Shown one piece after another: positions 43,019 to 58,713 of a stretch of DNA of 64,000 bases. Under the pieces are notes generated by a model that saw nothing but the letters and a program-made list of their open reading frames with translations, was not told the origin of the DNA and ran no database searches. The first letter of the stretch is position 1; each line of letters starts with the position of its first letter. A program made the translations under genes and the position numbers. Source of the stretch: an uncultured Eubacteriales bacterium (lineage in GTDB: Bacteria > Bacillota > Clostridia > Oscillospirales > CAG-272); contig CAJLXA010000003.1 of the NCBI GenBank assembly GCA_905210485.1, forward strand, positions 6,152 through 70,151, given 5' to 3'.

Positions 43019-43984
43019 TTATTGTTTGATGCCGAGGCCGGCGGCGCCGATGATGCCGGCGTCGTTGCCCAGTTCGGCAATGACGACCTTTGTTTTTTTC
43101 ACATTATTGCGGGTGTACTGTTCTTTGTCCATAATGGCGAGCAGGGGATTCAGGAGGTATTCGCGTTCGTTGCAGATGCCGCCGCCGATAGAGAGGACTT
43201 CCGGTTGGAAAATATTGATCATGTTGACAAGTCCGCAGGCAAGCAGGGCGATATATTCGTCGACAACCGCTTTTGCCGCAACGTCGCCTTGCTTCATGGC
43301 GGAAAATGCCGTGCGTGCCGTGACGTGATTGCCGTTGTCGCTGTCCGCAAGCATCAGGGTCGGAATGTCTTTGAGGCGACATTCGGTAATCTTTTCCTTT
43401 GTCATATTGGTGAGACCGGTCGCGGAGGAATACGCTTCAAAGCAACCGCGCCGTCCGCAGGAGCACTGACGACCGTTATATACGATTACGGTGTGACCGA
43501 GTTCGGCGCCCGCATGATTGAATCCGGAATAGACCTTTCCGTCGATGATGATGCCGCCGCCGACGCCGGTGCCGAGCGTAATCATGACGGAATTACGCGT
43601 TCCTTTTGCCGCGCCGACGAGTGCTTCCGCCAATGCGGCCGCGTTGGCGTCGTTTTCAATCAACACCTTTTTTACGGGAAGATACTTCTTAAAGATGTCG
43701 GCGATAGGGAAGTTCCTGAAAGGGAGGTTGTTGGCATATTCCACAACGCCGGTGTCGCAATTGGCAATGCCGGGAGTGGCGATACCGACATAAGCGACTT
43801 CGGAAAGAGGAATACCGGCTTCGTTAAGCAGTTTTTCCGTGAGAGCAGCCATGTCTTTGACGATCAGATCGCCGTCCCGGTTGGCGCCGGTGGGAACACT
43901 GCCTTTTTTTACAATCTTGAGACTTTCGTTGACAATACCGACGGCGATATTCGTGCCGCCGAGATCAACACCGATATAATACAT
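43019..43984 (-). CDS. glcK: ROK-family glucokinase
   Basis: MYYIGVDLGGTNIAVG, the GHTVIVYNGRQCSCGRRGCFEAY zinc motif, and ELGNDAGIIGAA. Confidence 0.88.
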   Translation of the reverse strand: MYYIGVDLGGTNIAVGIVNESLKIVKKGSVPTGANRDGDLIVKDMAALTEKLLNEAGIPLSEVAYVGIATPGIANCDTGVVEYANNLPFRNFPIADIFKKYLPVKKVLIENDANAAALAEALVGAAKGTRNSVMITLGTGVGGGIIIDGKVYSGFNHAGAELGHTVIVYNGRQCSCGRRGCFEAYSSATGLTNMTKEKITECRLKDIPTLMLADSDNGNHVTARTAFSAMKQGDVAAKAVVDEYIALLACGLVNMINIFQPEVLSIGGGICNEREYLLNPLLAIMDKEQYTRNNVKKTKVVIAELGNDAGIIGAAGLGIKQ

Positions 43985-44565: not shown

Positions 44566-44594
44566 TTGACAAGCAAGGCTTGCTGTGATATTAT
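44566..44594 (+). promoter_or_regulatory. Sigma-A-type promoter of the 7-gene cluster, with a palindromic spacer
   Basis: TTGACA (44566-44571), 17-nt spacer containing AGCAAG-G-CTTGCT, then TATTAT (44589-44594). It is followed by a roughly 115-nt structured leader. Confidence 0.55.
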
Positions 44595-44715: not shown

Positions 44716-47700
44716 TTGTCAATGAAAAAAGCAAAGTTCACCCGCGCGGCGGCGTTCTTACTTGCCATGATTATGGCGGTAGGTTCTCTTTTCACTCTCG
44801 CCTCCGCCTCTACGGAGTATGAGGACAACACGGGAAATACGGGTACGATCACGACACCGACGTATTCTTCCACCTCGTACGCCGCTTATCTGGCTGCACA
44901 GGCGGCGCTTCGCCGTCCGGCGCACTCCACGGCATCGGATGCCGAGATCATCAAGCAGAACAAAGGAAAGAACGAAATTTACCTTTCGCTCGGTGATTAT
45001 ACGGTCGACGCCGTTTCCACAAGAAGAGGCGTCTATCTCAACGGTATCAATGCCTCCGATCCTTCCGTAACGCTGGCGGGTTATGCTGCCGCCGTCGAGA
45101 ATCTTCCCGACGGGACAACGACGATCTATCTTCCCGAATCCGGCTCGGTTTCCTGGAAGATCAATGTGCCTGACGCAGGATTCTACGGTGTGCGTATCGA
45201 GTATTATCCTCTCGCTGTTGACGGTAAAATTTCTTCCGCCGAAAAGAAACTTCTGGTGGACGGGGAACTCCTTTTCAGCGAATGTACCTCACTTGCTTTT
45301 GACAAACTCTGGACCTATCAATACGTTTATCGGGAAAATGAAAACGGTGCTTACATTTTCGTTGCCGATGAGAACGGTACATATACCTTGTCTGTGAACG
45401 GCGCGGATGTGAAAGGCGAATATTACCTTGCCACGTTGGCGGATTCCCAGAACAAGACTTCGGCCGACGGTAAAAAATACGAGCGTGGATTTGCGCAGGA
45501 TATCAACGGGAACGATATGCGTTCGGATTGCGCGCAGAACCCCGCATGGCTTACATACACGCTTCAGGATCCGAACGGTCTTTATACCGAAGATCTTCAG
45601 ATTTATTTCAGTGCGGGCGAGCACGAACTGACGCTCGGCGGTATCCGCGAAGGATTGCTTGTCAAGTCCATCGTCCTTTTCCCGACCGAAGATCAGCTGA
45701 CGTATGCCGACTACAGCGATAAGGTGAAAGATCTTCCCGATCATTCCGGAGACGGAAGCATCATCAGGATCGAAGCGGAAAAACCCGACCTGATCTCCGA
45801 TTCTTCCGTTTATCCGACAAACGACCGCAGTTCTTCTCTCAACAGCCCGACGAATCCTTCTTCCCAGCTTCTCAACGTTATCGGTAAAGAAGGCTATTCG
45901 ACGGCAGGGCAGTGGGCTTCGTACACGTTCGCCGTGACCAAATCCGGTTACTATAATTTTGTATCCCGCTTCAAACAGACCACGCTTGAAGGTATGTTTG
46001 CGACCCGCGCTTTGAAACTCTGGTCTTCGGACGGTGAGTTCGGCCTTGTGGACGGAACCGCAACGGCGCCTTTCGCCGAGGCCAATAATATACGTTTCAA
46101 TTATGCCAACGCATGGCAGACGACAAAGTTCGGTTATTACGACGCCGATAACGCTTTCCATGAATTTACCTTCTATTTAAAGGAAGGCGTGGAATACCAC
46201 ATAGTTCTTGAGGTCAGCCTCGGCGATATGGCTACGGTTATTGATACCGTTGAAAATTCTTTGTCCGTTATCAACGATTGCTACCTTAATATATTGAAAC
46301 TCACCGGCACACAACCCGATGAATACCGTTCCTACAACTTCAACCGCGTCATGCCGAATACGGTGCGCAACCTGAAGAACCAGGCCGCCGTACTGACGGG
46401 CGTTGTTGACGAGATGAAACGTATCTGCGGCGTGTCCGGCTCCAACACCGCAACGCTGAATACCATTGCGATTCTGCTTGAGAAGATGGGCAGTGACGAA
46501 GATGAAATCGCGCCCAATCTCGGCAACCTCAAGTCTTACATCGGTAACCTCGGTACGTGGCTGAACACGGCAAAACAGCAAATGATCATGATTGACTATA
46601 TGACGGTACAGCCCACGGACGCAAAACTTCCCCGCGCCAATTCAAACTTCTTCCAGTCCGCATGGTTTGAAATCCGCGCATTTGTTTCCAGTTTCTTTAC
46701 CGATTATAACGCTATGGGCGTTACCTCGGAAATGTCCAAAGAAAACAGCATTGACGTATGGCTTGCCTACGGTCGTGACCAGTCGCAGATCTGGCGTAAC
46801 CTTATCGACGACGATTTCACTTCCGAAACCGGTATCCCTGTCACATTGAAACTGGTTACAGCCGGTACGCTTCTGCCTTCCGTTCTTTGCGGCAAAGGCC
46901 CTGACGTTTACATCGGCCTTGCGGCGGGCGACACTATCAACTATGCAATCCGCAGCGCCATCACCCCGCTCTCGCAATTTGAAGATCTGAATGATTTTGT
47001 TATCGGCCCCGACGCCGAAAATCCCCGTTTTGCCCCCTCCGCACTGGTTCCGCTTCAACTTTACGGCGAAACGTACGGTATTCCCGAAACTTCTTCCTTC
47101 TCCATGATGTTCATACGTAACGACATTCTGGAAAACCTCGGCATAGCGGTTCCCGAAACATGGGACGATCTTCTTGCCGCCGTTCCTGTTCTGCAGGCGA
47201 ACAACATGCAGATCGGTACTTCCTATGCTTCTCAGTTCAATATGTATCTCTATCAGCGCGGCGGCGGTCTGTGGCTCTATAACGGCACGGACGGCTATGC
47301 GTATGACGATGACTACGCCGGCGCACAGATCGGATACGGCACCAACACGGCGCTGGACGCTTTCGCCGATGTCTGCCGTTTGTATACCGACCTTTCTTTC
47401 CCGGTAACGTTTGACGCGGCCAACCGTTTCCGTACGGGCGAAGTTCCGCTTATGATTGCCGACTACGTGACTACTTACAACCAGTTGACGGTTTTTGCAA
47501 CCGAAATCGCCGGTATGTGGCAGTTCACGCTGATCCCCGGAACAGAGAAATCGATTTACGATGAAAACGGCGATCCTGTATATGACGTTGAGACCGGCCT
47601 GCAGAAAACCTATGTTGATCACACATCCATGACGACGGTGACGGCAACGGTTATGCTGCATAATGACAAACGCAGTGCAGAGGATACGCTCCACGCGTGG

Positions 47701-48090
47701 GAGTTCATGAAGTGGCAGGGCGGTGATAAGGCGCAGGCCACTTACGGTAACAAGATGGTTGCCCTTATCGGTCCTTCCGCCAAATATGCCAGTGCCAACA
47801 CGGTCGCTATCAGCAACCTTTCCTGGACGGCAACGGAACTTGCAAATATCAAGGCACAGCTTAACGAACTTGCCGCCATTGAAAACTACCCCGGTTCTTA
47901 TTATGTGGCCCGTTATGTACAGTTTGCCTTCTACAATGTCGTGAATGACGGCGCCGATCCTGCAGATGCTTTGCAGAGTTACATCAATACGATCAATAAA
48001 GAAATCACCCGTAAACGTCAGGAGTTTGAATTGCCGACTCTGGATATCGGTCAGACTCCCGAACAGGCCAGAAAAGCGGCCGGCAACTGA
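44716..48090 (+). CDS. Giant secreted ABC substrate-binding protein: signal peptide + two CBM-like beta-sandwich modules + helical spacer + family-1 SBP domain
   Basis: 1124 aa. Signal MSMKKAKFTRAAAFLLAMIMAVGSLFTLASAS with no Cys. CBM-like segments GSVSWKINVPDAGFYGVRIEYYPL and IRIEAEKPD...GQWASYTFAVTKSGYYNFVSRF. The C-terminal ~480 aa are SBP-like (IDVWLAYGRDQSQIWRNLIDDDF...GKGPDVYIGLAAGDT). Confidence 0.7.
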   Translation: MSMKKAKFTRAAAFLLAMIMAVGSLFTLASASTEYEDNTGNTGTITTPTYSSTSYAAYLAAQAALRRPAHSTASDAEIIKQNKGKNEIYLSLGDYTVDAVSTRRGVYLNGINASDPSVTLAGYAAAVENLPDGTTTIYLPESGSVSWKINVPDAGFYGVRIEYYPLAVDGKISSAEKKLLVDGELLFSECTSLAFDKLWTYQYVYRENENGAYIFVADENGTYTLSVNGADVKGEYYLATLADSQNKTSADGKKYERGFAQDINGNDMRSDCAQNPAWLTYTLQDPNGLYTEDLQIYFSAGEHELTLGGIREGLLVKSIVLFPTEDQLTYADYSDKVKDLPDHSGDGSIIRIEAEKPDLISDSSVYPTNDRSSSLNSPTNPSSQLLNVIGKEGYSTAGQWASYTFAVTKSGYYNFVSRFKQTTLEGMFATRALKLWSSDGEFGLVDGTATAPFAEANNIRFNYANAWQTTKFGYYDADNAFHEFTFYLKEGVEYHIVLEVSLGDMATVIDTVENSLSVINDCYLNILKLTGTQPDEYRSYNFNRVMPNTVRNLKNQAAVLTGVVDEMKRICGVSGSNTATLNTIAILLEKMGSDEDEIAPNLGNLKSYIGNLGTWLNTAKQQMIMIDYMTVQPTDAKLPRANSNFFQSAWFEIRAFVSSFFTDYNAMGVTSEMSKENSIDVWLAYGRDQSQIWRNLIDDDFTSETGIPVTLKLVTAGTLLPSVLCGKGPDVYIGLAAGDTINYAIRSAITPLSQFEDLNDFVIGPDAENPRFAPSALVPLQLYGETYGIPETSSFSMMFIRNDILENLGIAVPETWDDLLAAVPVLQANNMQIGTSYASQFNMYLYQRGGGLWLYNGTDGYAYDDDYAGAQIGYGTNTALDAFADVCRLYTDLSFPVTFDAANRFRTGEVPLMIADYVTTYNQLTVFATEIAGMWQFTLIPGTEKSIYDENGDPVYDVETGLQKTYVDHTSMTTVTATVMLHNDKRSAEDTLHAWEFMKWQGGDKAQATYGNKMVALIGPSAKYASANTVAISNLSWTATELANIKAQLNELAAIENYPGSYYVARYVQFAFYNVVNDGADPADALQSYINTINKEITRKRQEFELPTLDIGQTPEQARKAAGN

Positions 48091-48131: not shown

Positions 48132-49079
48132 ATGCCACAAATAAATGAGACAAAGCGCCCGGTATCCCGCAAGGATATGACGAGAGCGCAGTGGACATGG
48201 AAAGAAATAAAGAACAACAAAGTCGCGTATCTGATGGTGGCGCCGTTCTTTATTCTCTTCGTTGTCTTCACTGTATTCCCGGTTATTTTGTCTATGTTCC
48301 TGAGCCTTACGGAATTCAACCTTTTGGAAATGCCGAAATGGGTTGGTCTGCAGAACTATATCCGGCTCTTCCTTGACGACGATATTTTTATCATTGCATG
48401 TAAAAACACACTGATCTTCGCGGCGATCACGGGACCCGTTTCCTACATCATGTCGTTTCTCGTCGCATGGTTCATTAACGAACTTCCTCCCAAGATCCGT
48501 GCGGTTGTTACGCTGGTCTTCTACGCACCGTCCATTTCCGGCTCGGTGTATATGGTTTGGAAGATTCTGTTCTCCAGTGACTCTTACGGCTGGGTCAACG
48601 GTCTTCTTATTAAGTATAACATTATTGACAGCCCAATCCTGTGGTTTGAAAATGCCAGTTACGTTATGCCGCTCTGTATTGTGGTGGCATTGTGGACATC
48701 GCTCGGTACGGCGTTCCTGTCTTTTATCGCCGGTCTTCAGACCGTGGACAGAAGCCTTTACGAAGCGGCGGCCGTGGACGGTATCAAAAACCGTTGGCAG
48801 GAAGTGTGGTACATAACGCTTCCGAAGATGCGTCCGCAGTTGATGTTCGGTGCCGTTCTTTCCATTACAAACGCGTTTGGTTTCGGTGCGGTTGTTACGG
48901 CGCTTGCCGGTTTCCCGTCCGTCGACTATGCGGCATGGACGATCATGCACCATCTTGACGACTACGGCGGACAACGTTACGAAGTCGGCTATGCTTCGGC
49001 AATCGCCGTATTCCTGTTCGTAATCATGATCGGCAGTAACATACTGATCAAGAAGATACTTTCAAAGGTGGGACAATAA
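48132..49079 (+). CDS. ABC sugar-type permease (MalF/LplB-like), pair 1
   Basis: 315 aa with 6 TM segments. EAA loop SLYEAAAVDGIKNRWQEVWYITLP. Confidence 0.88.
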   Translation: MPQINETKRPVSRKDMTRAQWTWKEIKNNKVAYLMVAPFFILFVVFTVFPVILSMFLSLTEFNLLEMPKWVGLQNYIRLFLDDDIFIIACKNTLIFAAITGPVSYIMSFLVAWFINELPPKIRAVVTLVFYAPSISGSVYMVWKILFSSDSYGWVNGLLIKYNIIDSPILWFENASYVMPLCIVVALWTSLGTAFLSFIAGLQTVDRSLYEAAAVDGIKNRWQEVWYITLPKMRPQLMFGAVLSITNAFGFGAVVTALAGFPSVDYAAWTIMHHLDDYGGQRYEVGYASAIAVFLFVIMIGSNILIKKILSKVGQ

Positions 49080-49080
49080 T

Positions 49081-49968
49081 ATGGCGAGACAAAAATTGCA
49101 GAAATTAAGAACCCGCAATCATCGCGTTGTCCTTAACCGTTCCTACGGCGGCGACGCCGGCATTACGTTTTTCCTCGTCATCATGGGCGCTTTCATGTTC
49201 CTGCCGATGCTTTACCTCATTCTGCAGTCGCTGAAGCCTCTTGATGAACTCTGGATTTTTCCGCCGAGATTCTATGTTGTGAATCCGACGCTCCAGAATT
49301 TCGCCGACCTGTTCTCCCTTATGAACGACTCGTGGGTACCGTTTTCGCGTTACATATTCAACACCGTTTTCATTACGGTGTGCGGTACTTTCGGCAACCT
49401 GATCATCGGATCGCTCGGCGCTTATGCGTTGGCAAAGATGAAATTCCCGGGACGTCAGTTCATCTTCCAGATTATCGTGCTTTCGCTGATGTTCCATCAG
49501 ACGGTAAACCAGGTGGCGCACTTCATTATCCTCGGCGCGCTCGGTTGGGTCGACACCTATCTTGCCATCATCGTTCCGGCCCTGGCAACGACGATGGGCG
49601 TTTACCTGATGAAGCAGTTTATGGAATCTTCGGTTTCCGACGCGGTTCTCGAAAGCGCGCGTCTTGACGGCGCAAGCGAATTCCGGATCTTCCTTACCAT
49701 CGCCATGCCGATGGTAAAGCCGGCCTGGCTGACGCTGATCATCGAATCGTTCCGCGGCCTTTGGAACACCGGCGCTTCGATTTACATTCATTCGGAACAG
49801 TTGAAAACTTTCAACTATGCCATTACGCAGATCGTTGCCGGCGGTATTGCCCGTACCGGTGCGTCGGCGGCCGCTTCCGTGGTCATGATGCTCGTTCCGA
49901 TTACCGTATTTGTTATTAACCAGAGTAAAGTCATCGAAACGATGGGTACTTCGGGTATGAAAGATTAA
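49081..49968 (+). CDS. ABC sugar-type permease (MalG/LplC-like), pair 1
   Basis: 295 aa with 6 TM segments. EAA loop AVLESARLDGASEFRIFLTIAMP. It starts 1 nt after the preceding stop. Confidence 0.88.
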   Translation: MARQKLQKLRTRNHRVVLNRSYGGDAGITFFLVIMGAFMFLPMLYLILQSLKPLDELWIFPPRFYVVNPTLQNFADLFSLMNDSWVPFSRYIFNTVFITVCGTFGNLIIGSLGAYALAKMKFPGRQFIFQIIVLSLMFHQTVNQVAHFIILGALGWVDTYLAIIVPALATTMGVYLMKQFMESSVSDAVLESARLDGASEFRIFLTIAMPMVKPAWLTLIIESFRGLWNTGASIYIHSEQLKTFNYAITQIVAGGIARTGASAAASVVMMLVPITVFVINQSKVIETMGTSGMKD

Positions 49969-49984: not shown

Positions 49985-52171
49985 ATGAAAAAGAAAATTT
50001 CCGCATTGTTGCTTTTTCTCCTTTGTGCGGTGATGCTTTTCGGAACGGTATCTTCCGTTGCCGTAGAGCCTTACCAGACATACACGTATTCCATCGACGG
50101 CAAGGCTCTGTATTCTCCGGCGGCGTATACGCCCGCTATGACGGTTGATTACAAGTATATGGGACTTGCCAACAACTTTCAGTCGGTTGACGATCTTTTC
50201 GTAGGTCCGGATAACCGAGTATATCTTGTTGATGCCGGTGCCAGCTCCGTTTACGTGCTGTCTCCCTATTATCAAATTGAGAAGAAATCCGACGGCAAAG
50301 ATTTTGTGCTGAATACGTTTTATAACGGGACTTCGCAGGATAAACTCAACAGTCCTAAAGGCGTCTTTGTCAACGACGAATGTATTTATGTATGCGACAC
50401 CGAAAATTACCGCATTGTTGTGTTTGATCTTGACGGTAATTTCCTGCGCATCATTCCTCGTCCGCAGTCCTCGCTTTTCGGAACCGATTCCACGTATAAA
50501 CCCGTTGCTATGGCTGTTGACCAGTACGGACGTCTTTTCGTGATTTCCTCAACAACCTATCAGGGCGTCATTGTTATGACCGAAGACGGAACATTTACCG
50601 GCTTTATCGGCGCTCAATCGGTTACATACTCCATTGTGGATATTATCTGGCGCCGTTTCCAGACAAAGGAACAGCGCGAGAATTCGGTGCAGTATGTTTC
50701 TACCGAATATAATAACATCACGATCGACGACGACGGATTCATCTACGTTACGATTCAACAGCAGGATCTTGAAAAACAGCAGGCTTCTCTGGAAGCGAAA
50801 GACTATGAGTATGCCCCTGTCAAAAAACTGAACTCCTCCGGCTCCGAGATCATGAAGCGTAACGGTTTCTTCGGACCGGGCGGTGACGTTGACGTGCAGA
50901 ATTCCACGACCGAAAGCGGCGTACCTACAGGTCCGTCCATTATTGAGGACGTGGCTATCGGCCCGGAACAAACCTATTCGATCATTGATACCAAGCGTAA
51001 TAAGATTTTTACGTATGACCAGAACGGCAACCTGCTCTTCGCGTTCGGCGACAGCGGTATTCAGCTCGGCAATACGGCAAAACTGAATGCCATCACCTAT
51101 CAGAAATACGGTGACGCAGGAAAAGACGGAACGGTTAAGCATAAACTTCTGACGCTGGACAGTTCGACAAAAATGATTACGGTCTTCACATGTACGGAAT
51201 ACGGCAATCTTCTTTATTCCGCACTGAATTATGAAAACAATCGTGATTATGTCAATTCGGTCATAGCGTGGAAGAGCGTTCTTGCCCGCAACAATAACTT
51301 TGACGCGGCGTATATCGGCGTCGGTAAGGCTTATTACCGTGAGGGCGAGTACGAGCAGGCTATGGAATATTTCAAAGCCGCTTACGATACCGAAAACTAT
51401 TCCAATGCGTACTCCGAAGTACGTAAAGAGTGGGTTTCCAAGTACCTTATCGTGATTCCGATTGTGGTCATCGTTGTGTTGTTCGCGCTTCTGAAACTGG
51501 GGGCTTATGCAAACAAAGTCAATGTGGCCACAGCGACGAAAGGCGGCAAACGCACTTTCAAAGAGGAACTTCTGTATTCTTTCCATCTGAAGTACCACCC
51601 GTTTGACGGCTACTGGGATCTGAAACATGAAAAACGCGGCTCGGTTCGCGCGGCGTTGGTGATCCTCGTTGTGACGATCCTGTGCTTCTACTATCAATCG
51701 GTCGGCACCGGCTATCTTCTGAATCCGGAGGGAACCTATTCCACAATCTGGGTACAGCTCATTGCCGTAATAATCCCGCTTTTGTTGTGGGTCGTCGCCA
51801 ACTGGTGTCTTACCACATTGTTCGACGGTGAGGGTTCGCTGAAGGACGTATTTGTCGCTTCGTGCTACAGTCTGGCGCCTCTTCCGCTTCTTCTCATCCT
51901 CTCGACGGCATTGTCCAACATCGTTACGAGCGCTGAAGCGCAGATCGTGCAGTTCCTGATTGTCCTCGGCTATATCTGGGTGGGATTCCTCCTGTTCTTC
52001 GGTACCATGGTGACGCACGACTATTCGCTCGGTAAAAACTTCATTACCGTCATCGGAACGATTGTCGGTATGTGTATTATTATGTTCGTAGCCGTTCTGT
52101 TCTCAAGCCTTCTCGGAAAGATGATATCTTTCGTGTCCAACATCATCGTTGAAATCAACTATCGTCTATAA
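49985..52171 (+). CDS. Signal peptide + six-bladed NHL-repeat propeller + TPR + Yip1-family membrane domain fusion
   Basis: 728 aa. NHL blades are visible (LNSPKGVFVNDECIYVCDTENYRIVVFDLDGNF; YGRLFVISSTTYQGVIVMTEDGTF; IIDTKRNKIFTYDQNGNLLFAFG). A TPR-like segment follows (GVGKAYYREGEYEQAMEYFKAAYD), then a TM segment, then HPFDGYWDLKHEKRGS and 5 TM segments (Yip1-like). Confidence 0.65.
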   Translation: MKKKISALLLFLLCAVMLFGTVSSVAVEPYQTYTYSIDGKALYSPAAYTPAMTVDYKYMGLANNFQSVDDLFVGPDNRVYLVDAGASSVYVLSPYYQIEKKSDGKDFVLNTFYNGTSQDKLNSPKGVFVNDECIYVCDTENYRIVVFDLDGNFLRIIPRPQSSLFGTDSTYKPVAMAVDQYGRLFVISSTTYQGVIVMTEDGTFTGFIGAQSVTYSIVDIIWRRFQTKEQRENSVQYVSTEYNNITIDDDGFIYVTIQQQDLEKQQASLEAKDYEYAPVKKLNSSGSEIMKRNGFFGPGGDVDVQNSTTESGVPTGPSIIEDVAIGPEQTYSIIDTKRNKIFTYDQNGNLLFAFGDSGIQLGNTAKLNAITYQKYGDAGKDGTVKHKLLTLDSSTKMITVFTCTEYGNLLYSALNYENNRDYVNSVIAWKSVLARNNNFDAAYIGVGKAYYREGEYEQAMEYFKAAYDTENYSNAYSEVRKEWVSKYLIVIPIVVIVVLFALLKLGAYANKVNVATATKGGKRTFKEELLYSFHLKYHPFDGYWDLKHEKRGSVRAALVILVVTILCFYYQSVGTGYLLNPEGTYSTIWVQLIAVIIPLLLWVVANWCLTTLFDGEGSLKDVFVASCYSLAPLPLLLILSTALSNIVTSAEAQIVQFLIVLGYIWVGFLLFFGTMVTHDYSLGKNFITVIGTIVGMCIIMFVAVLFSSLLGKMISFVSNIIVEINYRL

Positions 52172-52196: not shown

Positions 52197-55100
52197 ATGA
52201 AAATGAAAAATATATTGTCTATGCTTCTTGCCGTCGTCATGGTGTTTGCTTGCGTAAGCGGACTTTTCGGTACCGTTTCCGTGAAAGCGGCCGATGATAC
52301 GGACGATGGCGAAGAAGATCTGAAGCCTTATGAAGTGGCGGCGGCCGCGGCATTGCAAAATGCCTATACGTCGATCAGCGAGAAAGTTCGCCGCGAAAAT
52401 ACTGCCGGATATACCCGCCTTGTGGCAACATCCGCGGACGGCAGTTATGAGCTTCACGCCAATGTGTACACCGGTGAAGTGTACTATAAAAACACAAAAA
52501 CCGGTCAGTTCCTGTCCACAAACCCGGCTTCGCTTTCCAGTGTGGCAACAGCGCAGAAGCCGTTGGCTTTGTCACAGCTCAGCGTCAAGTATATGGATCT
52601 CACCGGCACTACCGCTACTATGGTCAGTTTTACGGAGGCGGCACAGCGCGGTCAGGTTACCATCAAACAGATTCGTAACGGTATACGCGTCGAATATACC
52701 ATCGGCCGTACCGATACGAACTATCTGTTGCCCGGCTGGATTACCGAGGACCGTTTTGAATCCCTGATTCTGACGCCTATCTGCAACTACATTCTTCAGA
52801 TCATTTCCGACGAAGCATATGAAGATGTAGATATTGAAGTTCTTCAGAACAAATATGCGGAGTATGTAGCCGAGTATGAAGAAAATCCCAAATTGCACGC
52901 GGAAAGCTATGCCGATCAGTACGCATTGCTTTCTGTGGGTGACGAATACGGCGTGGATCTTACCGATTCCACGTACTCCAAAGCCGCCAATATCGCGTAC
53001 TTCCAGTACATGAGAATCCGCGCAACGTATGCGTTGCAGGATCCGAATGACCTGGCGGACGGCAGCGACGCAAAGATCGAGCTTCTTGCCAAGTATAAAA
53101 TCTGCTCGCAGGTCGATAAGGATACGGGTAAGTTTTATGTGATTTATACGGTTGACGACACGTTGCCCGATAAATCGAAAAAACTTTACGAATCGTATAT
53201 CAAAACCTACTGTGCCGAAACGTATACGTACGACGACAAGGCGTACGATACCGAAGAAACTGGTTATGTTTCAACGGACGAGGCGCCGGCGTTCTTCCGT
53301 ATGGCATTGGAATATTCCATTGCCGATGACGGAACGCTTTCGGTTCGCCTGCCCGCGAACAGTATCCGCTATGACAGCACGAACTTCACCCTTCTCAGCG
53401 TGGACGTTCTGCCGTTCTTCGGAGCCGGTAATGTCAATGACGAGGGATATGCTTTCTATCCGGACGGAAGCGGCGCGCTCCTTGAGTTTTCCGACCTCCG
53501 TTCTCAGGTGTCTGCCGGTTCGCTGACAAACCGTGTATACGGCGAAGATTATGTTTACTACAAAATTTCCGCCAAACACCAGGAATCCATTCGTATGCCT
53601 GTGTACGGTATTGTCGATACGTCGAAGAGAACGACGCAGATTACCGAACTGGACTATGACCGCGTCACCGGCGAAATTATTGAGACAAAGAAAGATATTG
53701 TCACTTCCGAAACGACAGGATTTGTCGCTTATCTTACGGAAGGCGAAGCACTTGCCTCGCTGACAGTGGCTTTCGGCGGTTCGAGCGCACATAACTATAC
53801 GTCGATCTATCCGACGTATACACCGACGCCAACCGACTCTTATAAACTCGTCGACGCTATCTCGGTCAGCACGGACGCGACCGAATGGACAGTGGCATCC
53901 AAGAAAAAATATACCGATAATTTCACGATCCAGATCCAGATGCTGAGTGATACGGCGAAAGCCACCGAAGCCGGAATCACGAATTATTACGAAGCTTCGT
54001 GGATCGGCATGGCTCAGGCTTATCGTGACTTTATATGGAAAGGGAAGAATTCGTTTACTTCCGCCGATGTCTCGGACTCTCTGCCTTTGTACATCGAATC
54101 GTTCGGTACGGTAAAGGCGACCGACAAAATCCTGTCGATTCCTGTCACCGTCGACAAAGCGCTGACCACGTTTGACGATGTTATCACCATGTATAAGGAA
54201 CTTTCCGCATATAAAACCGATTGTGAAGCCAAAGCGGCCGAATATGTGCAAAAAGCCGCGGCCGCACGCAACGAAAACAATATCATATTGGCGGAAGAAT
54301 ATGAAAAGACGGCAGCGGAGTACGCCGAAAAAGCCGCCGCATCTTCCGATATGTCCAATATCAAGTTCAAGTTGACTGGTTTTGCAAACGGCGGTATGAC
54401 CGCTACATATCCGAACAAGGTAAAATGGATGAAGTCCGTAGGCGGCGCTCGCGGCTTTGAAAAACTGCTCAACTATGCCGCAAACGATACAAACGGCAAA
54501 CTCGGCATTTATCCCGAATTTGAATTTTCGTATGTAGCGAACAAAAAGTCTTTTGACGGCATTTCGCTGAAAGCGGACGCCGCACGTTCGGTCGACAACC
54601 GCTATGCAAGCCAGGCTGTGTATGACTGTGTGTATCAGACATTCACGACCTACTTCCATGTGCTGATGTCTCCCGACGCCATCGCCAAGCATTACGCGAA
54701 ATTCACGAAATCCTATAGCAAGAATAAAGGTGTGACCGGTATTTCGGCTTCCTCGCTCGGCAGCGACCTCAACTCTTCGTTCTCGGAAGACAATCCGCAG
54801 AACCGTGAAGACTCCAAGTCGATTCTGTCCGACGTACTGGCCGATATGAAAGAAGAATACGGTTCGGTCATGATTTCCGGCGGCAATGCTTATACATTGA
54901 AATTCGCCGATCATATCATTGACATTCCGCTTGACAGTTCCAACTACAAGTACTCGTCGAGGACAATACCGTTCATCGGTATGGTGCTTCACGGCTACGT
55001 GAACTATGCGGGCGGCGCTACCAACGAAGCAGGCGACAGTAAGTATCAGCTTCTGCGCTCGATCGAAAACGGCGCGTCTCTCTATTACATTCTTTCGTAT

Positions 55101-56537
55101 GCCAATACCACGATTCTGAAAGACGACCTTCTTCTTAACACGTACTATTCCATTCGTTACGATATCTGGGTCGACGACCTTGCCCGTCAGTATCACACGC
55201 TGAACAGTGCCATCGGTTCGCTTCAGACGTATCTCATTCAAAACGAGATTTCCGTTATTGCGGAACGTATTCCCGACAGCGCGGAACTTACCCGGTACCG
55301 CAAACTCCTGACTGACAATGCGGTTCTGGCATTGCAGACGGCCATTACCGACGCAAGAGACAATGCATACCGTGACATGCGCTTCCAGAACACCATGAAG
55401 GTTCTTTTTGAAAACAAGGATCTGATCGGTAATGCACAGAATCTGTACGCTGAAAAACTGGCGGCTGCCAAACTGCTGTATGACGCCATCAACGACGAAA
55501 CGCTGGACAGTGAAAACGGCGGAACGTGGAAACAACTTCGCGACGATGTAGCCGCATATCAGAGCGCGGTGGACGAAGCCGGCGATAATGCAACAGCCGA
55601 GCAACTGTTACGGCTTGAAGCCGCTAAACTGCGTCTCTCCTACAACATTGATCTTGCTACTCAGGCATATAGCGCCTACAATACCGATACGGCAAACGGC
55701 GTTTACAATGAAGAGTTGCTGATCGGTGCGGCAGAAGAAATCGTAACGTCTTCGTGGGGAACTCTTTCCGATTCGGAAAAAGCGCTCCTCAAGAATATGT
55801 ACGACGTCTATAAGGCGGGCGGCACATGGGCGAACCAGATCGGCAAAACGGTGACGGTTTCCGTCGACCGCAATGCGGTTCTGAACAGCGTGAAGGCCGC
55901 TTATGACGCACAGACCAAATATTTCACCGAGGCCGCTCTTCTTGATTTCCACACGGCATTGGCCGGTGCGATTGATGAAGCCATCGCGAGCTATTATGCC
56001 GAATTCGTAAACGCTTATATCGAAACCCTGACGTATACGTCGCAGAACGGTCAACCGGTTTATGAAACGTTGACGACATATGAATATGCCGCGCTTCGCG
56101 ACGCTCTTGTACGTTTCTATGTGGCGAAGACCGAAGAAGCAACGCAGGCAAATGTCGAAGCGTTTGTTAAGAACTTCCTGAATAATGCCAACGGCAACAG
56201 CGAAGAACTGACAAATGTTCAGAAGTCGATTATCCGTGATACAATCGCATATCTTACCGGCGCAGGTTTTGCCGGCGATAAAGTGGTGGATCTTACCGCC
56301 ATCGAAGTAACGCCGGACATCATCTTCACCGAAGAAGACGCGACCGACGCCGAATATGTCGGCACACCGTATACCGTGAATGACGATTCGGTAGTGATGG
56401 TGATCTACGAAAGCGCCGATAAAACGCAGCGCAAAGGATTTATCCTGAACTATAACGTATTTGATGTGACGGTTCGTTATAACGGTACGGTCTACACTAT
56501 TTCGTCCTACGGTTTTGCAACCGTGAATCTTGATTAA
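52197..56537 (+). CDS. 1446-aa N-terminally anchored extracytoplasmic protein, DUF5696-like (uncharacterised)
   Basis: AGGAGTG lies upstream of ATG 52197. Signal/anchor MKMKNILSMLLAVVMVFACVSGLFGTVSVKA. I recognise no characterised catalytic motif. Conserved-looking blocks are GYAFYPDGSGALLEF, LTGFANGGM, IYPEFEF and IPFIGMVLHGYVNYAGG. The DUF5696 label comes from memory of similar neighbourhoods and is not verified. Confidence 0.5.
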   Translation: MKMKNILSMLLAVVMVFACVSGLFGTVSVKAADDTDDGEEDLKPYEVAAAAALQNAYTSISEKVRRENTAGYTRLVATSADGSYELHANVYTGEVYYKNTKTGQFLSTNPASLSSVATAQKPLALSQLSVKYMDLTGTTATMVSFTEAAQRGQVTIKQIRNGIRVEYTIGRTDTNYLLPGWITEDRFESLILTPICNYILQIISDEAYEDVDIEVLQNKYAEYVAEYEENPKLHAESYADQYALLSVGDEYGVDLTDSTYSKAANIAYFQYMRIRATYALQDPNDLADGSDAKIELLAKYKICSQVDKDTGKFYVIYTVDDTLPDKSKKLYESYIKTYCAETYTYDDKAYDTEETGYVSTDEAPAFFRMALEYSIADDGTLSVRLPANSIRYDSTNFTLLSVDVLPFFGAGNVNDEGYAFYPDGSGALLEFSDLRSQVSAGSLTNRVYGEDYVYYKISAKHQESIRMPVYGIVDTSKRTTQITELDYDRVTGEIIETKKDIVTSETTGFVAYLTEGEALASLTVAFGGSSAHNYTSIYPTYTPTPTDSYKLVDAISVSTDATEWTVASKKKYTDNFTIQIQMLSDTAKATEAGITNYYEASWIGMAQAYRDFIWKGKNSFTSADVSDSLPLYIESFGTVKATDKILSIPVTVDKALTTFDDVITMYKELSAYKTDCEAKAAEYVQKAAAARNENNIILAEEYEKTAAEYAEKAAASSDMSNIKFKLTGFANGGMTATYPNKVKWMKSVGGARGFEKLLNYAANDTNGKLGIYPEFEFSYVANKKSFDGISLKADAARSVDNRYASQAVYDCVYQTFTTYFHVLMSPDAIAKHYAKFTKSYSKNKGVTGISASSLGSDLNSSFSEDNPQNREDSKSILSDVLADMKEEYGSVMISGGNAYTLKFADHIIDIPLDSSNYKYSSRTIPFIGMVLHGYVNYAGGATNEAGDSKYQLLRSIENGASLYYILSYANTTILKDDLLLNTYYSIRYDIWVDDLARQYHTLNSAIGSLQTYLIQNEISVIAERIPDSAELTRYRKLLTDNAVLALQTAITDARDNAYRDMRFQNTMKVLFENKDLIGNAQNLYAEKLAAAKLLYDAINDETLDSENGGTWKQLRDDVAAYQSAVDEAGDNATAEQLLRLEAAKLRLSYNIDLATQAYSAYNTDTANGVYNEELLIGAAEEIVTSSWGTLSDSEKALLKNMYDVYKAGGTWANQIGKTVTVSVDRNAVLNSVKAAYDAQTKYFTEAALLDFHTALAGAIDEAIASYYAEFVNAYIETLTYTSQNGQPVYETLTTYEYAALRDALVRFYVAKTEEATQANVEAFVKNFLNNANGNSEELTNVQKSIIRDTIAYLTGAGFAGDKVVDLTAIEVTPDIIFTEEDATDAEYVGTPYTVNDDSVVMVIYESADKTQRKGFILNYNVFDVTVRYNGTVYTISSYGFATVNLD

Positions 56538-56553
56538 AGGAGGGAACTGAATA

Positions 56554-57522
56554 ATGAAAAATACAACTATGGCTATTCCTTCCGTCAAGAAGCATAAGAA
56601 GGCCTCGCTCGACGCGCGCAAAGCGCGCGCGGGCTGGTTCTTCGTCCTGCCTTTCGTAATCGGTCTTGTTCTGATTTATCTGCCGATCGTTATCGACTCG
56701 ATCTGGTTCAGTTTTAACACAATCAAACCGATTCCGGTGCGTGAAGGCGGCGGTTATCAGCTGGTTTTTGAAGGTTGGAACTTCTATCGCTCCGCTTTGG
56801 TCGGCGATATGTCCACAACGTATCTGCAAAAACTTCTTTCCGGTATTCAGCAACTGGTTCTGGATGTTCCCGCGATCGTCATTTTCTCTCTCTTCATCGC
56901 GGTTATTCTGAATCAGAAGATGGTCGGACGCGCCGCATTCCGCGCAATCTTCTTCATACCGGTTATTATCGCTACCGGCCTTATGGAAACGATCAATGCC
57001 GCGGATACGCTGGCATCTTCCATGGAGAACGGTACGTCGATGGGTGAAGAGACCAGTGCGACAACGCAGATCATCTCCACAATGGACGTGGAACGCTTGT
57101 TTGAAAACATGAAAGTCGGTAAAGAACTGGTTATATACATCACGAACCTTGTTAACAGTATTTATAATATCGTTAACCGTTCGGGCGTACAGATGCTGAT
57201 CTTCCTTGCCGGTCTTCAGTCCATTTCCCCCGCGATTTACGAAGCCTGTGAAATTGAAGGCGCGACCGCATGGGAAACTTTCTGGAAGATTACTTTCCCG
57301 ATGATAAGTCCGATGATACTTGTCAACGCTATTTACACGATTATCGACTCTTTCACAACCAACACGAACGTTGTTATGTCGTACATTTCCTCTGAAGTAT
57401 ACAACAGCAGTCAGGGTGTGGCGACAGCAATGTCATGGATATACTTCGTTGTCATAATGGCCATTATCGGTCTTGTGACGCTGATATGTTCCAGTTTCGT
57501 GTTCTACCAGAAACGTAATTAA
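56554..57522 (+). CDS. ABC sugar-type permease (MalF-like), pair 2
   Basis: 322 aa. EAA loop IYEACEIEGATAWETFWKITFP. An extracytoplasmic insert is present (NAADTLASSMENGTSMGEETSATTQ...). Confidence 0.85.
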   Translation: MKNTTMAIPSVKKHKKASLDARKARAGWFFVLPFVIGLVLIYLPIVIDSIWFSFNTIKPIPVREGGGYQLVFEGWNFYRSALVGDMSTTYLQKLLSGIQQLVLDVPAIVIFSLFIAVILNQKMVGRAAFRAIFFIPVIIATGLMETINAADTLASSMENGTSMGEETSATTQIISTMDVERLFENMKVGKELVIYITNLVNSIYNIVNRSGVQMLIFLAGLQSISPAIYEACEIEGATAWETFWKITFPMISPMILVNAIYTIIDSFTTNTNVVMSYISSEVYNSSQGVATAMSWIYFVVIMAIIGLVTLICSSFVFYQKRN

Positions 57523-57535
57523 GGAGGCGGAAAAG

Positions 57536-58624
57536 ATGGATGCACAAAAAATGAAAGCTCCGAAAAAAGTCTATAATAAAGACGGCTACATCGTTTCCTT
57601 TGAAGATAAGGTTCCGTTCTGGGAAAGACTGAAGGGAAAAGTATTCTCCACATACTTCCTTACCAACGTTGTCTGGTACATTTTCCGTCTTGTACTGATG
57701 ATCGGTATTTCTTTCGTGATTCTGTACCCGTTTATCTCCAAGATCGCGGGTTCGTTCATGGCTCCCGAAGATTTCAAAGACGCGACGGTCAATATCATTC
57801 CGAAGCACTTCACGATCGGTACGTATAAGGCTATCTTCCTTGAGAATCATTATATGTCCGCCTTTGTCAACACTTTGCTTCTGTCGTTACTCTGCGCATT
57901 GCTGCAAACGTTTATTTGCTGTCTTGTCGGGTACGGCCTTGCCAAGTTCAAATTCAAAGGTAACAAACTGATTCTTCTCATGGTCGTTCTGACCATGATT
58001 ATCCCGCACGGAACGCTCCGCCTTTCCATGTTCCTGCATTTTGAATATTTCAACCCCGGCAGTATTTCCGGCTGGAATGTTCCCGGTATCCTGACGCCGT
58101 TTATCTGGTTTATCAATCTCTTCCGTTCGACACCGTTGACGGGCGTGTCTCTGACGGATACCTATTGGCCGCTGATTCTTCTTTCGCTGTTCGGTCTCGG
58201 CTTCAAGAACGGTCTTTACATCTTCATGATGCGGCAGTTCTTCCATGGCGTGCCCGATGAACTTGAGGAATCTGCGTACGTGGACGGTTCCACGACGATG
58301 CGTACGTTTTTCCAGATCATCATTCCGCTTTCGATACCGATGATGATCACGATCTTCCTGTTCGCGTTTTCGTGGCAGTGGACGGATAACTTCTACACGG
58401 AACTGTTCTTCATTTCGGGCAGTGACATCATTCTGATGCCTGACCTTTTGGAATCGGTTCCGCCGACCCTGTTGGCAAACAAACCGTTTACCGACTGGTC
58501 GCTGTATGAAACGGCCATTCGCAATACGTGCGGTCTTATGATCATTCTGCCGCTTGTCATTCTCTATCTCTTCTGCCAGAAGTACCTGGTGCAGGGTATT
58601 GAACGCAGCGGTATCGTAGGCTGA
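57536..58624 (+). CDS. ABC sugar-type permease (MalG-like), pair 2
   Basis: 362 aa. EAA loop LEESAYVDGSTTMRTFFQIIIP. It has a 50-aa cytoplasmic N-terminal extension. Confidence 0.85.
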   Translation: MDAQKMKAPKKVYNKDGYIVSFEDKVPFWERLKGKVFSTYFLTNVVWYIFRLVLMIGISFVILYPFISKIAGSFMAPEDFKDATVNIIPKHFTIGTYKAIFLENHYMSAFVNTLLLSLLCALLQTFICCLVGYGLAKFKFKGNKLILLMVVLTMIIPHGTLRLSMFLHFEYFNPGSISGWNVPGILTPFIWFINLFRSTPLTGVSLTDTYWPLILLSLFGLGFKNGLYIFMMRQFFHGVPDELEESAYVDGSTTMRTFFQIIIPLSIPMMITIFLFAFSWQWTDNFYTELFFISGSDIILMPDLLESVPPTLLANKPFTDWSLYETAIRNTCGLMIILPLVILYLFCQKYLVQGIERSGIVG

Positions 58625-58651: not shown

Positions 58652-58688
58652 AAAAACACCGAAGAACTTTTGGTCTTCGGTGTTTTTC
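58652..58688 (+). terminator. Rho-independent terminator closing the 7-gene cluster
   Basis: 10-bp stem ACACCGAAGA/TCTTCGGTGT with an A-run before it and a T-run after it. Confidence 0.8.
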
Positions 58689-58713
58689 TTCTACGCCTAA
58701 AGACGGCAATAAG

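Follow-up and report, generated by a model that had tools for sequence, protein, structure and literature searches.

Described CUT1 systems (TC 3.A.1.1) have one permease pair, their binding protein is a lipoprotein of some 420 aa, and we know of none that includes a propeller-Yip1 or a DUF5696 subunit. The Yip1 family is conserved across all three domains of life and lacks a mechanism; how its fold works in eukaryotic ER-Golgi traffic is likewise without a mechanistic explanation. Eukaryotic YIPF proteins act in this traffic, assemble into hetero-oligomers, and bind Rab GTPases through a cytosolic N-terminal domain (PMC6682643). For bacteria, two reports, citing Yamada et al. 2012, describe Bacillus subtilis YknW as a member of the Yip1 family that serves the YknXYZ ABC transporter as an accessory subunit and modulates its assembly (PMC4887032, PMC4338810); YknW is a counterexample to the view of the initial annotation that bacterial Yip1 proteins are essentially uncharacterised, which does not wholly stand. 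Searches of the literature returned no paper on a propeller-Yip1 family, none mentioning DUF5696, and none joining Yip1, NHL repeat, and ABC permease or solute-binding protein. A search for "YIP1 family protein" gave eukaryotic, bacteriocin-cluster, and YknW mentions only, and one for DUF624, another membrane accessory of sugar ABC operons, yielded nothing of use.

The window analyzed here is a stretch of 64,000 nucleotides from an uncultured Eubacteriales bacterium, and its propeller-Yip1 gene is a fixed yet unstudied member of a seven-gene sugar-uptake operon of many gut Gram-positive bacteria (Table 1). This gene is the fourth in a cassette with the order giant binding protein, permease pair, propeller-Yip1, DUF5696, and second permease pair. 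The intergenic gaps measure 1 to 41 nt, the DUF5696 ATG at 52197 lying 25 nt past the propeller-Yip1 stop and following an AGGAG site, and the operon has a single strong promoter-like site and a single terminator. Since the flanking open reading frames are BPD_transp_1 permeases, the initial annotation was right to place the gene inside an ABC operon. Neither an ATPase nor a glycoside hydrolase gene is found in the operon, and the cassette contains no MacB or membrane fusion protein genes; one MalK/MsmK-type ATPase gene is present in trans, as a 377-aa open reading frame with OB_MalK on another contig (C12). The four BPD_transp_1 permeases together with a MalK-type ATPase in the genome fit a CUT1-type system. 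The importer assignment comes mainly from the four permeases because the giant binding-protein-like protein of this window has no Pfam or NCBIfam match at E ≤ 0.01. The giant binding protein, DUF5696, and the propeller-Yip1 protein carry mostly AxA signal peptides rather than lipoboxes, and AxA-type N termini are common to homologues of the propeller-Yip1 protein. By a crude regular expression, most members of these three secreted families lack a lipobox, the matches obtained (12/89, 5/86, and 19/100) being mostly false patterns inside signal peptides.

Table 1. Features of the propeller-Yip1 gene and its operon (positions in the window; aa, residues of the propeller-Yip1 protein unless a length is given)
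Feature	Position	Strand	Description
Candidate operon promoter	44566..44594	+	TTGACA-17-TATTAT with TG extension; 11/12 consensus match, consensus match only
Operon gene 1, secreted giant binding-protein-like protein	44716..48090	+	1124 aa; without lipobox; collinear in every complete locus
Operon genes 2-3, first CUT1-type permease pair	48132..49968	+	BPD_transp_1; NCBIfam UgpA/UgpE/MalG-type partial matches
UgpA/MalF-like permease of first pair	48132-49079	+	
UgpE/MalG-like permease of first pair	49081-49968	+	
Propeller-Yip1 open reading frame	49985-52171	+	728 aa; AGGAG ribosome-binding site 11 nt 5' of ATG
Signal peptide, type I, without lipobox	49985..50065	+	aa 1-27, MKKKISALLLFLLCAVMLFGTVSSVAV; hydropathy peak 2.46; AF2 helix 2-20
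Extracytoplasmic six-bladed NHL beta-propeller	50066..51196	+	aa ~28-404; Pfam NHL, AF2 strands, Foldseek, profile, conservation
TPR-like helical module	51197..51442	+	aa 405-486; five helices, ~2.5 repeats; runs directly into TM1
TM1, out-to-in anchor helix	51443..51502	+	aa 487-506; hydropathy 2.98; AF2 helix 490-518
K/R-rich cytoplasmic linker	51503..51583	+	aa 507-533; gene-fission site in split-gene relatives
Yip1 domain	51584..52168	+	aa 534-728; juxtamembrane motif and five TM helices, N-in/C-out, C-terminal extracytoplasmic helix
Motif HPFDGYWDLKHEKRGS	51596..51643	+	aa 538-553; predicted cytoplasmic, just ahead of first Yip1 TM
Motif NWCLTTLFDGEGS	51800..51838	+	aa 606-618; predicted cytoplasmic end of second Yip1 TM
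Operon gene 5, DUF5696 exoprotein	52197..56537	+	PF18952, E 1.4e-117
Operon genes 6-7, second permease pair	56554..58624	+	56554-57522 and 57536-58624; BPD_transp_1; collinear in every complete locus
Intrinsic terminator past last permease gene	58652..58690	+	ACACCGAAGA...TCTTCGGTGT then TTTTTCTTCT

More than 4594 full-length homologues were found, and the architecture is therefore not a product of chance; the family comprises 1373 clusters at 50% identity (E ≤ 1e-30). In a domain scan of longer relatives, of 757 to 998 aa, the sole addition is extra NHL repeats. The gene occurs in 84 of 399 Clostridia species, about one fifth of those sampled, in animal and human guts, and the cassette is present in other Bacillota too. 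Its gene order is identical in all 103 loci inspected (20/20, 80/80, and 3/3), which belong to many families of Bacillota, and DUF5696 co-occurs in 82 of the 84 carrier genomes, both exceptions being contig-end fragments. A survey of fusion versus adjacency, as advised in the initial annotation, was carried out on 400 Clostridia species: the two halves, propeller and Yip1, form one fused gene at 60 loci and two split genes at 34. Split halves are always adjacent genes that overlap by 4 to 22 nt, the break always falls in the cytoplasmic linker, and fused and split forms alternate across lineages. At the level of comparative genomics, the invariant order, the co-occurrence of DUF5696, and the fusion survey strongly support the earlier suggestion of a possible partnership between the protein and the permeases next to it.

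The protein consists of a signal peptide, a six-bladed NHL beta-propeller, a TPR module, a TM helix, a cytoplasmic linker, and a 5-TM Yip1 domain. The AF2 full-length model (pLDDT 81, pTM 0.65) resolves into six blades of four strands each, five helices of TPR type (405-487), and six TM helices, and hydropathy likewise delineates the signal peptide (1-27), TM1 (487-506), and five later TM segments (556-574, 587-605, 622-640, 654-672, and 687-705). Together, they agree with the initial reading of a signal peptide, about six NHL blades, and one TM segment followed by five; the peptides quoted at the time lie at residues 120-156, 171-204, 332-355, 442-468, and 538-561. Loop 507-553, which follows TM1, contains 11 K/R, indicating that it is cytoplasmic and hence that the propeller is outside. 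In the predicted topology, the propeller-TPR part is located outside the cell and the N terminus of Yip1 inside; hydropathy and the AF2 topology thus put the propeller on the extracytoplasmic side, as first proposed, and not in the cytoplasm, the placement set beforehand as the refutation of that proposal. Conservation in a sliding window falls to its minimum for the whole protein (0.26) in the linker.

In single-sequence Pfam searches, the NHL and Yip1 models each exceed their curated cut-offs, so that the lack of detection named beforehand as another refuting outcome did not occur; the former (PF01436) does so marginally, with one repeat at residues 121-147 scoring 21.3 bits versus a cut-off of 20. 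NHL scores in relatives range from 33 to 57 bits, and most homologues carry a precomputed NHL annotation. In the Foldseek comparison with the PDB, ranks 1 to 21 are all NHL domains (E 2e-13 to 5e-9), with target-normalized TM values mostly of 0.69 to 0.75 and of about 0.52 for the longer Lin41 filamin-NHL chains. A family profile built from 120 relatives for sequence search of the PDB matches the Pizza designs (E 7e-75), TRIM71 (E 5e-39), and the PknD sensor 1rwi (E 3e-31), as well as the Thin and Brat propellers. Each blade has one conserved Asp (D83, D138, D179, D248, D335, and D392), and the Gly-rich propeller loops 291-311 and 357-364 are conserved and modeled with low confidence. The propeller may act in recognition, as the initial annotation suggested. 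The adjoining TPR-like segment, which had been noticed at the outset, is substantiated by five antiparallel AF2 helices (405-418, 422-435, 440-452, 456-465, and 469-487) forming about 2.5 repeats and by consensus TPR proteins among the hits of the family profile (E 4e-45); single-sequence Pfam TPR models score 16 to 19 bits, under their cut-offs (best, 18.6 versus 27), and many homologues carry a precomputed TPR-family annotation. The propeller-plus-solenoid proteins of COPI, IFT-A, and HOPS appear at Foldseek ranks 29 to 35, and we take this likeness to coat proteins as architectural only, because the helical part here amounts to just five helices.

The Yip1 model PF04893 matches residues 538-703 over positions 6-172 of 173 (E 1.3e-14; 54.9 bits versus a cut-off of 28.6), and a six-frame search of the genome for Yip1 returned the same single match. 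The five-TM, N-in/C-out topology is reproduced by prediction, with five hydropathy peaks after the K/R-rich loop and five long helices in the AF2 models of both the full-length protein and the domain, and the split Yip1 open reading frames open with basic residues ahead of the first TM. The Yip1 TM domain is more conserved than the propeller. The window at motif NWCLTTLFDGEGS has the highest conservation in the protein (0.74) and that at HPFDGYWDLKHEKRGS the second highest (0.71), and both motifs are invariant in alignment A1; in alignment A2, the consensus FHPFDGFWDLKxEKRGS is retained at 29 to 51% identity, and G615 is 100% conserved. A separate AF2 model of the Yip1 domain is confident (pLDDT 87, pTM 0.81), and Foldseek finds no PDB look-alike for it (best E 0.59, TM < 0.25), so the domain is not assignable to a known transporter or channel fold. 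The sequence-profile search of the PDB also found no Yip1 relative.

On balance, we lean towards the propeller-Yip1 protein being a dedicated, probably non-catalytic accessory subunit of a seven-gene CUT1-type ABC glycan importer of gut Bacillota, a function that we infer. In this role, the Yip1 domain would abut one permease pair, or both, within the membrane and organize the complex, as YknW does for YknXYZ; the analogy is loose, since YknW serves a MacB-type exporter with a membrane fusion protein and not a type I importer. The most conserved face of Yip1 (HPFDG..RGS and NWCLTTLFDGEGS) would be cytoplasmic and might contact the cytoplasmic loops of the permeases or the shared ATPase, and the propeller-TPR part would stand on the membrane directly above TM1, where it would bind the glycan on its way in or else the cassette's two large ectoproteins, namely the giant binding protein and DUF5696. 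Since neither of these is lipid anchored, the propeller-TPR part could hold both at the translocators. A more far-reaching version, which we put forward tentatively, makes propeller-TPR-Yip1 the organizing hub of a hitherto unrecognized multi-subunit glycan capture-and-import machine of single-membrane bacteria, tethering the non-lipidated giant binding protein and the glycosidase-fold DUF5696 over two ABC translocators and coupling outside events to the transporters through the conserved cytoplasmic face of Yip1. The conserved cytoplasmic motifs, which overlap eukaryotic YIPF motifs in part, may also be fold determinants rather than an interaction surface.

The alternative that survives best, which we nevertheless regard as rather unlikely, is a transmembrane regulator or receptor, in which a ligand, or the binding protein in its loaded state, is sensed by the propeller outside the cell and the signal passes to the conserved cytoplasmic face of Yip1, there to gate a permease pair, the shared ATPase, or some other cytoplasmic factor, so that the function of the protein is control and not scaffolding. 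Among bacterial proteins, the propeller is closest in sequence to the extracellular sensor of the receptor kinase PknD, the two 15-aa windows of highest conservation map to the predicted cytoplasmic face of Yip1, and prokaryotic Yip1 proteins have been proposed as possible membrane receptors in a YIPF review (PMC6682643). However, neither the protein nor the cassette contains a kinase, HTH, or other output domain, and translational coupling joins the gene to structural transporter genes at every locus; the propeller half can moreover be a separate polypeptide, which fits assembly at least equally well.

An enzymatic propeller (lactonase, lyase, esterase, or amidating-lyase-like) that trims or modifies surface glycan before uptake, with Yip1 a mere anchor, appears improbable. 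Enzymes are known among six-bladed NHL/SGL-type propellers, and the conserved, flexible Gly-rich loops of low model confidence could be part of an active site; weak matches to SGL, ScyF, arylesterase, and phytase-like models were obtained, together with a profile match to the peptidylglycine amidating lyase 3fvz (E 1.7e-10) and the lactonases Drp35 and RPA3624 at Foldseek ranks 43 to 47. Every enzyme-family score, however, is under its curated cut-off (SGL PF08450, 20.0 bits versus 26.3), and the deeply conserved propeller residues form a per-blade structural Asp/Gly pattern and not a single metal site; for these reasons, we give a catalytic propeller low weight. Non-catalytic NHL domains are also far ahead by fold and by sequence, and a plain anchor would need no 5-TM domain that outdoes the propeller in conservation.

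Less probable still is a Yip1 domain that itself moves an ion or small solute beside the ABC translocators, as a channel or as a secondary transporter. Polar, invariant residues do occur in its TM helices (N606, T610, E651, and H678), and the YIPF review reports that profiles of the Yip1 clan resemble those of transporter families (PMC6682643), but the Foldseek comparison described above showed no fold likeness to a solved transporter or channel, five TM helices per copy are few for a pore, and YknW, the one bacterial member that has been studied, is a factor in assembly. We give least credence of all to a cassette that is no nutrient importer, with the protein serving instead in surface attachment or in the biogenesis of the envelope or of polysaccharide: the giant binding protein and DUF5696 of this window have no assignable family function and the operon has no ATPase or glycoside hydrolase gene, but its four permeases are of the UgpAE/MalFG-type BPD_transp_1 kind known only from importers, the MalK-type ATPase is available in trans, and a ROK sugar kinase gene adjoins the cassette here and in 27/80 related loci.

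Three of the seven cassette proteins are without known function, which means that part of the fiber and glycan uptake capacity of the gut microbiota uses undescribed machinery. Because Yip1 is here fused or translationally coupled to a propeller and fixed in an importer operon in hundreds of species, a transporter-adaptor or receptor role for the family becomes testable. If the hub proposal is true, the Yip1 fold would have served ancestrally as a membrane adaptor for transporters.

Comparison with known systems sets these features in context. The M. tuberculosis PknD sensor (1rwi/1rwl) is likewise an NHL propeller of six blades on the extracytoplasmic side, held to the membrane by one TM helix; among bacterial sequences it matches the family profile best, and the Pizza designs derive from its propeller. 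The PknD propeller is coupled to a cytoplasmic Ser/Thr kinase, whereas the propeller here is joined via the TPR module and a TM helix to Yip1, and the kinase is absent; we know of no ligand for PknD. For the cassette, the closest known systems are CUT1 importers of Firmicutes with an orphan MsmK/MsmX ATPase, which share the MalFG/UgpAE-type permeases and the lack of an operon ATPase, and Gram-positive polysaccharide utilization loci.

The eukaryotic YIPF proteins (Yip1p, Yif1p, and YIPF1-7) share with the present protein the PF04893 domain and five TM helices in N-in/C-out orientation (PMC6682643). YIPF motif 3 (phi-phi-G-Y-x-phi-phi-P) is seen in the third Yip1 TM as A-S-C-Y628-S-L-A-P632, the Gly position being Cys or variable and Y628 and P632 being conserved in 93% and 100% of 120 representatives, and the juxtamembrane phi-phi-x-P is seen as (I/K)(F/Y)-H-P539. 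Motif 2 (D-L/F-x-G/I-P) is not kept before the first TM, where the nearest stretch, D545-L546-K-H-E, has neither the G/I nor the P of the motif; since motif 2 has been defined solely for eukaryotic members, the Pfam Yip1 membership stands. The cytosolic N-terminal domain is absent from this Yip1 protein, for which the eukaryotic functions of Rab GTPase binding and vesicle budding would not be expected in a bacterium, and, unlike it, YIPF proteins have no lumenal propeller and no ABC-transporter context. YknW of the B. subtilis and B. amyloliquefaciens YknWXYZ systems is likewise a polytopic Yip1-family protein encoded within an ABC-transporter operon. It is small, stands alone without an ectodomain, and partners the MacB-type exporter YknYZ and the membrane fusion protein YknX in peptide-toxin resistance, whereas the Yip1 domain at the present locus carries or neighbors a propeller-TPR ectodomain and is accompanied by type I importer permeases, a giant binding protein, and DUF5696.

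The 728-residue product of the propeller-Yip1 ORF, whose ATG lies 11 nt downstream of an AGGAG, contains all of the peptides quoted in the initial annotation. By HMM definitions, it is a member of both the Yip1 and NHL families claimed there: residues 538 to 703 match Pfam PF04893 (model positions 6 to 172/173; E value, 1.3e-14; 54.9 bits against a cutoff of 28.6), and the single-sequence NHL score (21.3) is marginally over its cutoff of 20. The TPR-like pair stands in part; five antiparallel helices in the AF2 model and a profile match to consensus TPR proteins (E value, 4e-45) support it, whereas the single-sequence Pfam scores (16 to 19 bits) are under the cutoff. In NCBIfam, the only matches are partial ones to NHL and TPR models. 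Hydropathy places an N-terminal signal peptide at residues 1 to 27, TM1 at 487 to 506, and five further TM helices at 556 to 574, 587 to 605, 622 to 640, 654 to 672, and 687 to 705, the same one-plus-five count as first proposed. The loop after TM1 (507 to 553) carries 11 Lys/Arg and is therefore predicted to be cytoplasmic, which would leave the 460 residues from the signal peptide to TM1, and with them the propeller, outside the cell, as claimed. The predicted Yip1 topology is that of the eukaryotic YIPF proteins (five TM, N-in/C-out; PMC6682643).

The full-length AF2 model, built from 89 homologs (pLDDT, 81; pTM, 0.65), has six four-stranded blades (about residues 30 to 404) and membrane helices, with the five-helix segment (405 to 487) continuous with TM1. 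Foldseek ranks 1 to 21 against the PDB are NHL domains (Thin, TRIM71/Lin41, Brat, and TRIM2/3), with E values of 2e-13 to 5e-9 and target-normalized TM scores mostly of 0.69 to 0.75, consistent with the roughly six NHL-like blades originally read. A profile of 120 representatives (29 to 51% identity) retrieved Pizza propellers (E value, 7e-75) and TRIM71 (5e-39) from the PDB sequences. The full-length model also aligns weakly (ranks 29 to 35) to COPI alpha/beta', IFT-A, and HOPS, propeller-plus-solenoid vesicle-coat or tether proteins. With eukaryotic Yip1 acting in vesicle budding, this likeness is curious, but it is probably one of shared architecture only.

Conservation peaks where the Yip1 domain is predicted to face the cytoplasm, not in the extracellular propeller; of all 15-residue windows in the protein, 603 to 617 (VVANWCLTTLFDGEG) and 538 to 552 (HPFDGYWDLKHEKRG) rank highest, and both motifs are absent from a generic Yip1-like ORF that a relative carries at another locus (L154). 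YIPF motif 3 (G-Y-x-phi-phi-P, third TM), in which yeast mutations are temperature sensitive or lethal (PMC6682643), is recognizable as C-Y628-S-L-A-P632, with P632 invariant. Deep conservation in the propeller consists of one Asp per blade (D83, D138, D179, D248, D335, and D392) and Gly/Pro positions. The Gly-rich loops 291 to 311 and 357 to 364 are conserved but of low AF2 confidence and may become ordered upon binding something.

As the initial annotation stated, the gene lies inside an ABC operon: seven genes on the same strand, 1 to 41 nt apart, with permease pairs on both sides. Automatic ORF calling places the DUF5696 start at TTG 52149, inside the 3' end of propeller-Yip1 (52149 to 52171); the tabulated ATG, preceded by AGGAG and giving 1,446 aa, is the likelier start.

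Features of the propeller-Yip1 cassette and its most conserved motifs
Feature	Position	Strand	Remark
Candidate promoter	44566-44594		strong promoter-like
Secreted binding-protein-like protein, 1124 aa (giant binding protein)	44716-48090	+	
First permease pair	48132-49968	+	
Propeller-Yip1 gene	49985-52171	+	
HPFDGYWDLKHEKRG	51596-51643		predicted cytoplasmic face of Yip1 domain; conservation windows
VVANWCLTTLFDGEG	51800-51838		predicted cytoplasmic face of Yip1 domain; conservation windows
DUF5696	52197-56537	+	E 1.4e-117
Second permease pair	56554-58624	+	
Terminator	about 58652-58690		clear hairpin and T-run

No ATPase gene is present in the seven-gene cassette. The source genome, 1.76 Mb long and 95.6% complete, contains one Yip1 locus, one DUF5696 locus, and one MalK/MsmK-type ATPase ORF (377 aa, with an OB_MalK domain) on another contig (C12, about 1700 to 2850; locus L155, 1243 to 2376, minus strand), which presumably powers both permease pairs in trans. 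Upstream lies a divergent ROK-family sugar kinase gene (43019 to 43984, minus strand), and 27 of 80 related loci likewise have a ROK gene next to the cassette, a hint that the substrate is a glycan that yields hexose. Most homologs of the giant binding protein and DUF5696, the window copies included, have AxA-type signal peptides with no lipobox Cys, which is unusual for single-membrane surface proteins that must stay near a transporter. The propeller-Yip1 family, too, has mostly a type I signal peptide without lipobox.

A word-indexed search found more than 4,594 relatives, the best 120 of which (696 to 744 aa, 54 to 75% identity, plus one identical cluster) share the architecture, come from uncultured Clostridia, and are at most named "YIP1 family protein"; an exhaustive search of 50% clusters gave 10,156 at E ≤ 1e-3 and 1,373 at E ≤ 1e-30. 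The gene occurs in no fewer than 584 species-level genomes; most are MAGs from the gut of ruminants, horse, chicken, rabbit, and humans and belong to Eubacteriales and Oscillospiraceae, "Candidatus Flemingibacterium" among them. Of 400 evenly sampled Clostridia species, 84 are carriers (49 of 217 genera), as are 26 of 300 other Bacillota, some with up to five copies. Longer relatives (800 to 1,000 aa; proteins P0124, P0135, and P0172; loci in genomes G014, G054, G087, and G117; locus L039) have extra N-terminal NHL repeats before the common core, which may form a second propeller or add blades.

When the seven proteins were mapped onto the 20-kb surroundings of 20 diverse hits and the 22-kb surroundings of another 80, cassette order and strand were the same in 100 of 100 loci, incomplete only at contig ends, and order was unchanged in three further paralogous cassettes, one decaying. 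In the latter (L157; G257:C1:733000-752999), pair 1 has lost its second permease, only the last three blades of the propeller remain, with the Yip1 fusion kept (495 aa), and DUF5696 contains a stop codon. DUF5696 accompanies 82 of the 84 Clostridia carriers, the other two hits being on contig ends; 33 genomes have DUF5696 only, mostly a weakly matching short type (about 570 aa). The fused-versus-adjacent survey proposed initially counted, in the 400 species, 60 loci of the fused form (in 54 genomes) and 34 of the split form (in 31 genomes), with both forms in four genomes. Split loci have a propeller-TPR-TM1 ORF (about 500 aa) followed at once by a Yip1 ORF (about 207 to 250 aa), often overlapping by 4 to 22 nt. 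The split always falls in the cytoplasmic linker, a poorly conserved stretch, and topology is therefore preserved in both halves. Recurrent fusion and fission of this kind are classically taken as evidence that the halves act as one unit.

Computation demonstrates how the domains are ordered, the predicted topology, membership in the operon, co-occurrence, and fusion/fission; the mechanism beyond these we infer. We lean, by a little, toward an accessory subunit of an ABC importer, on the analogy of YknW. The Yip1 domain would dock to the permeases, its conserved cytoplasmic face touching either the loops that they expose to the cytoplasm or the shared ATPase. Because the two large ectoproteins lack a lipobox in a single-membrane bacterium, they require a tether at the transporter; the membrane-proximal TPR and propeller would be the obvious candidate tether for the giant binding protein and DUF5696, or the propeller might bind the glycan itself. 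A regulatory, receptor-like version is unlikely. The profile matches the extracellular sensor of PknD (E value, 3e-31), from which the Pizza proteins were designed; PknD's kinase is absent here, making PknD an analog only. Catalysis by the propeller is less probable still; lactonases first appear at Foldseek ranks 43 to 47, the SGL lactonase Pfam model scores 20 bits on the single sequence, under its cutoff, and the Asp and Gly/Pro pattern is an NHL structural signature with no obvious single active site. We give little credence to the Yip1 domain being a channel; it has no PDB match in the profile search, and its separate model (pLDDT, 87; pTM, 0.81) has no PDB fold match by Foldseek (best E value, 0.59; TM score, <0.25). 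A role other than import is the most improbable of all.

The literature search found no paper on the cassette, DUF5696, or a propeller-Yip1 protein, and a 2019 YIPF review states that prokaryotic members have no reported function (PMC6682643). YknW, the one bacterial Yip1-family protein studied so far, influences how the YknXYZ ABC transporter assembles, as an accessory subunit (Yamada et al. 2012, as cited in PMC4887032 and PMC4338810); it is an analog only, its exporter partners being unmatched here. We class propeller-Yip1 as a putative ABC-transporter accessory subunit in which familiar domains are combined in an arrangement and a setting not described before.
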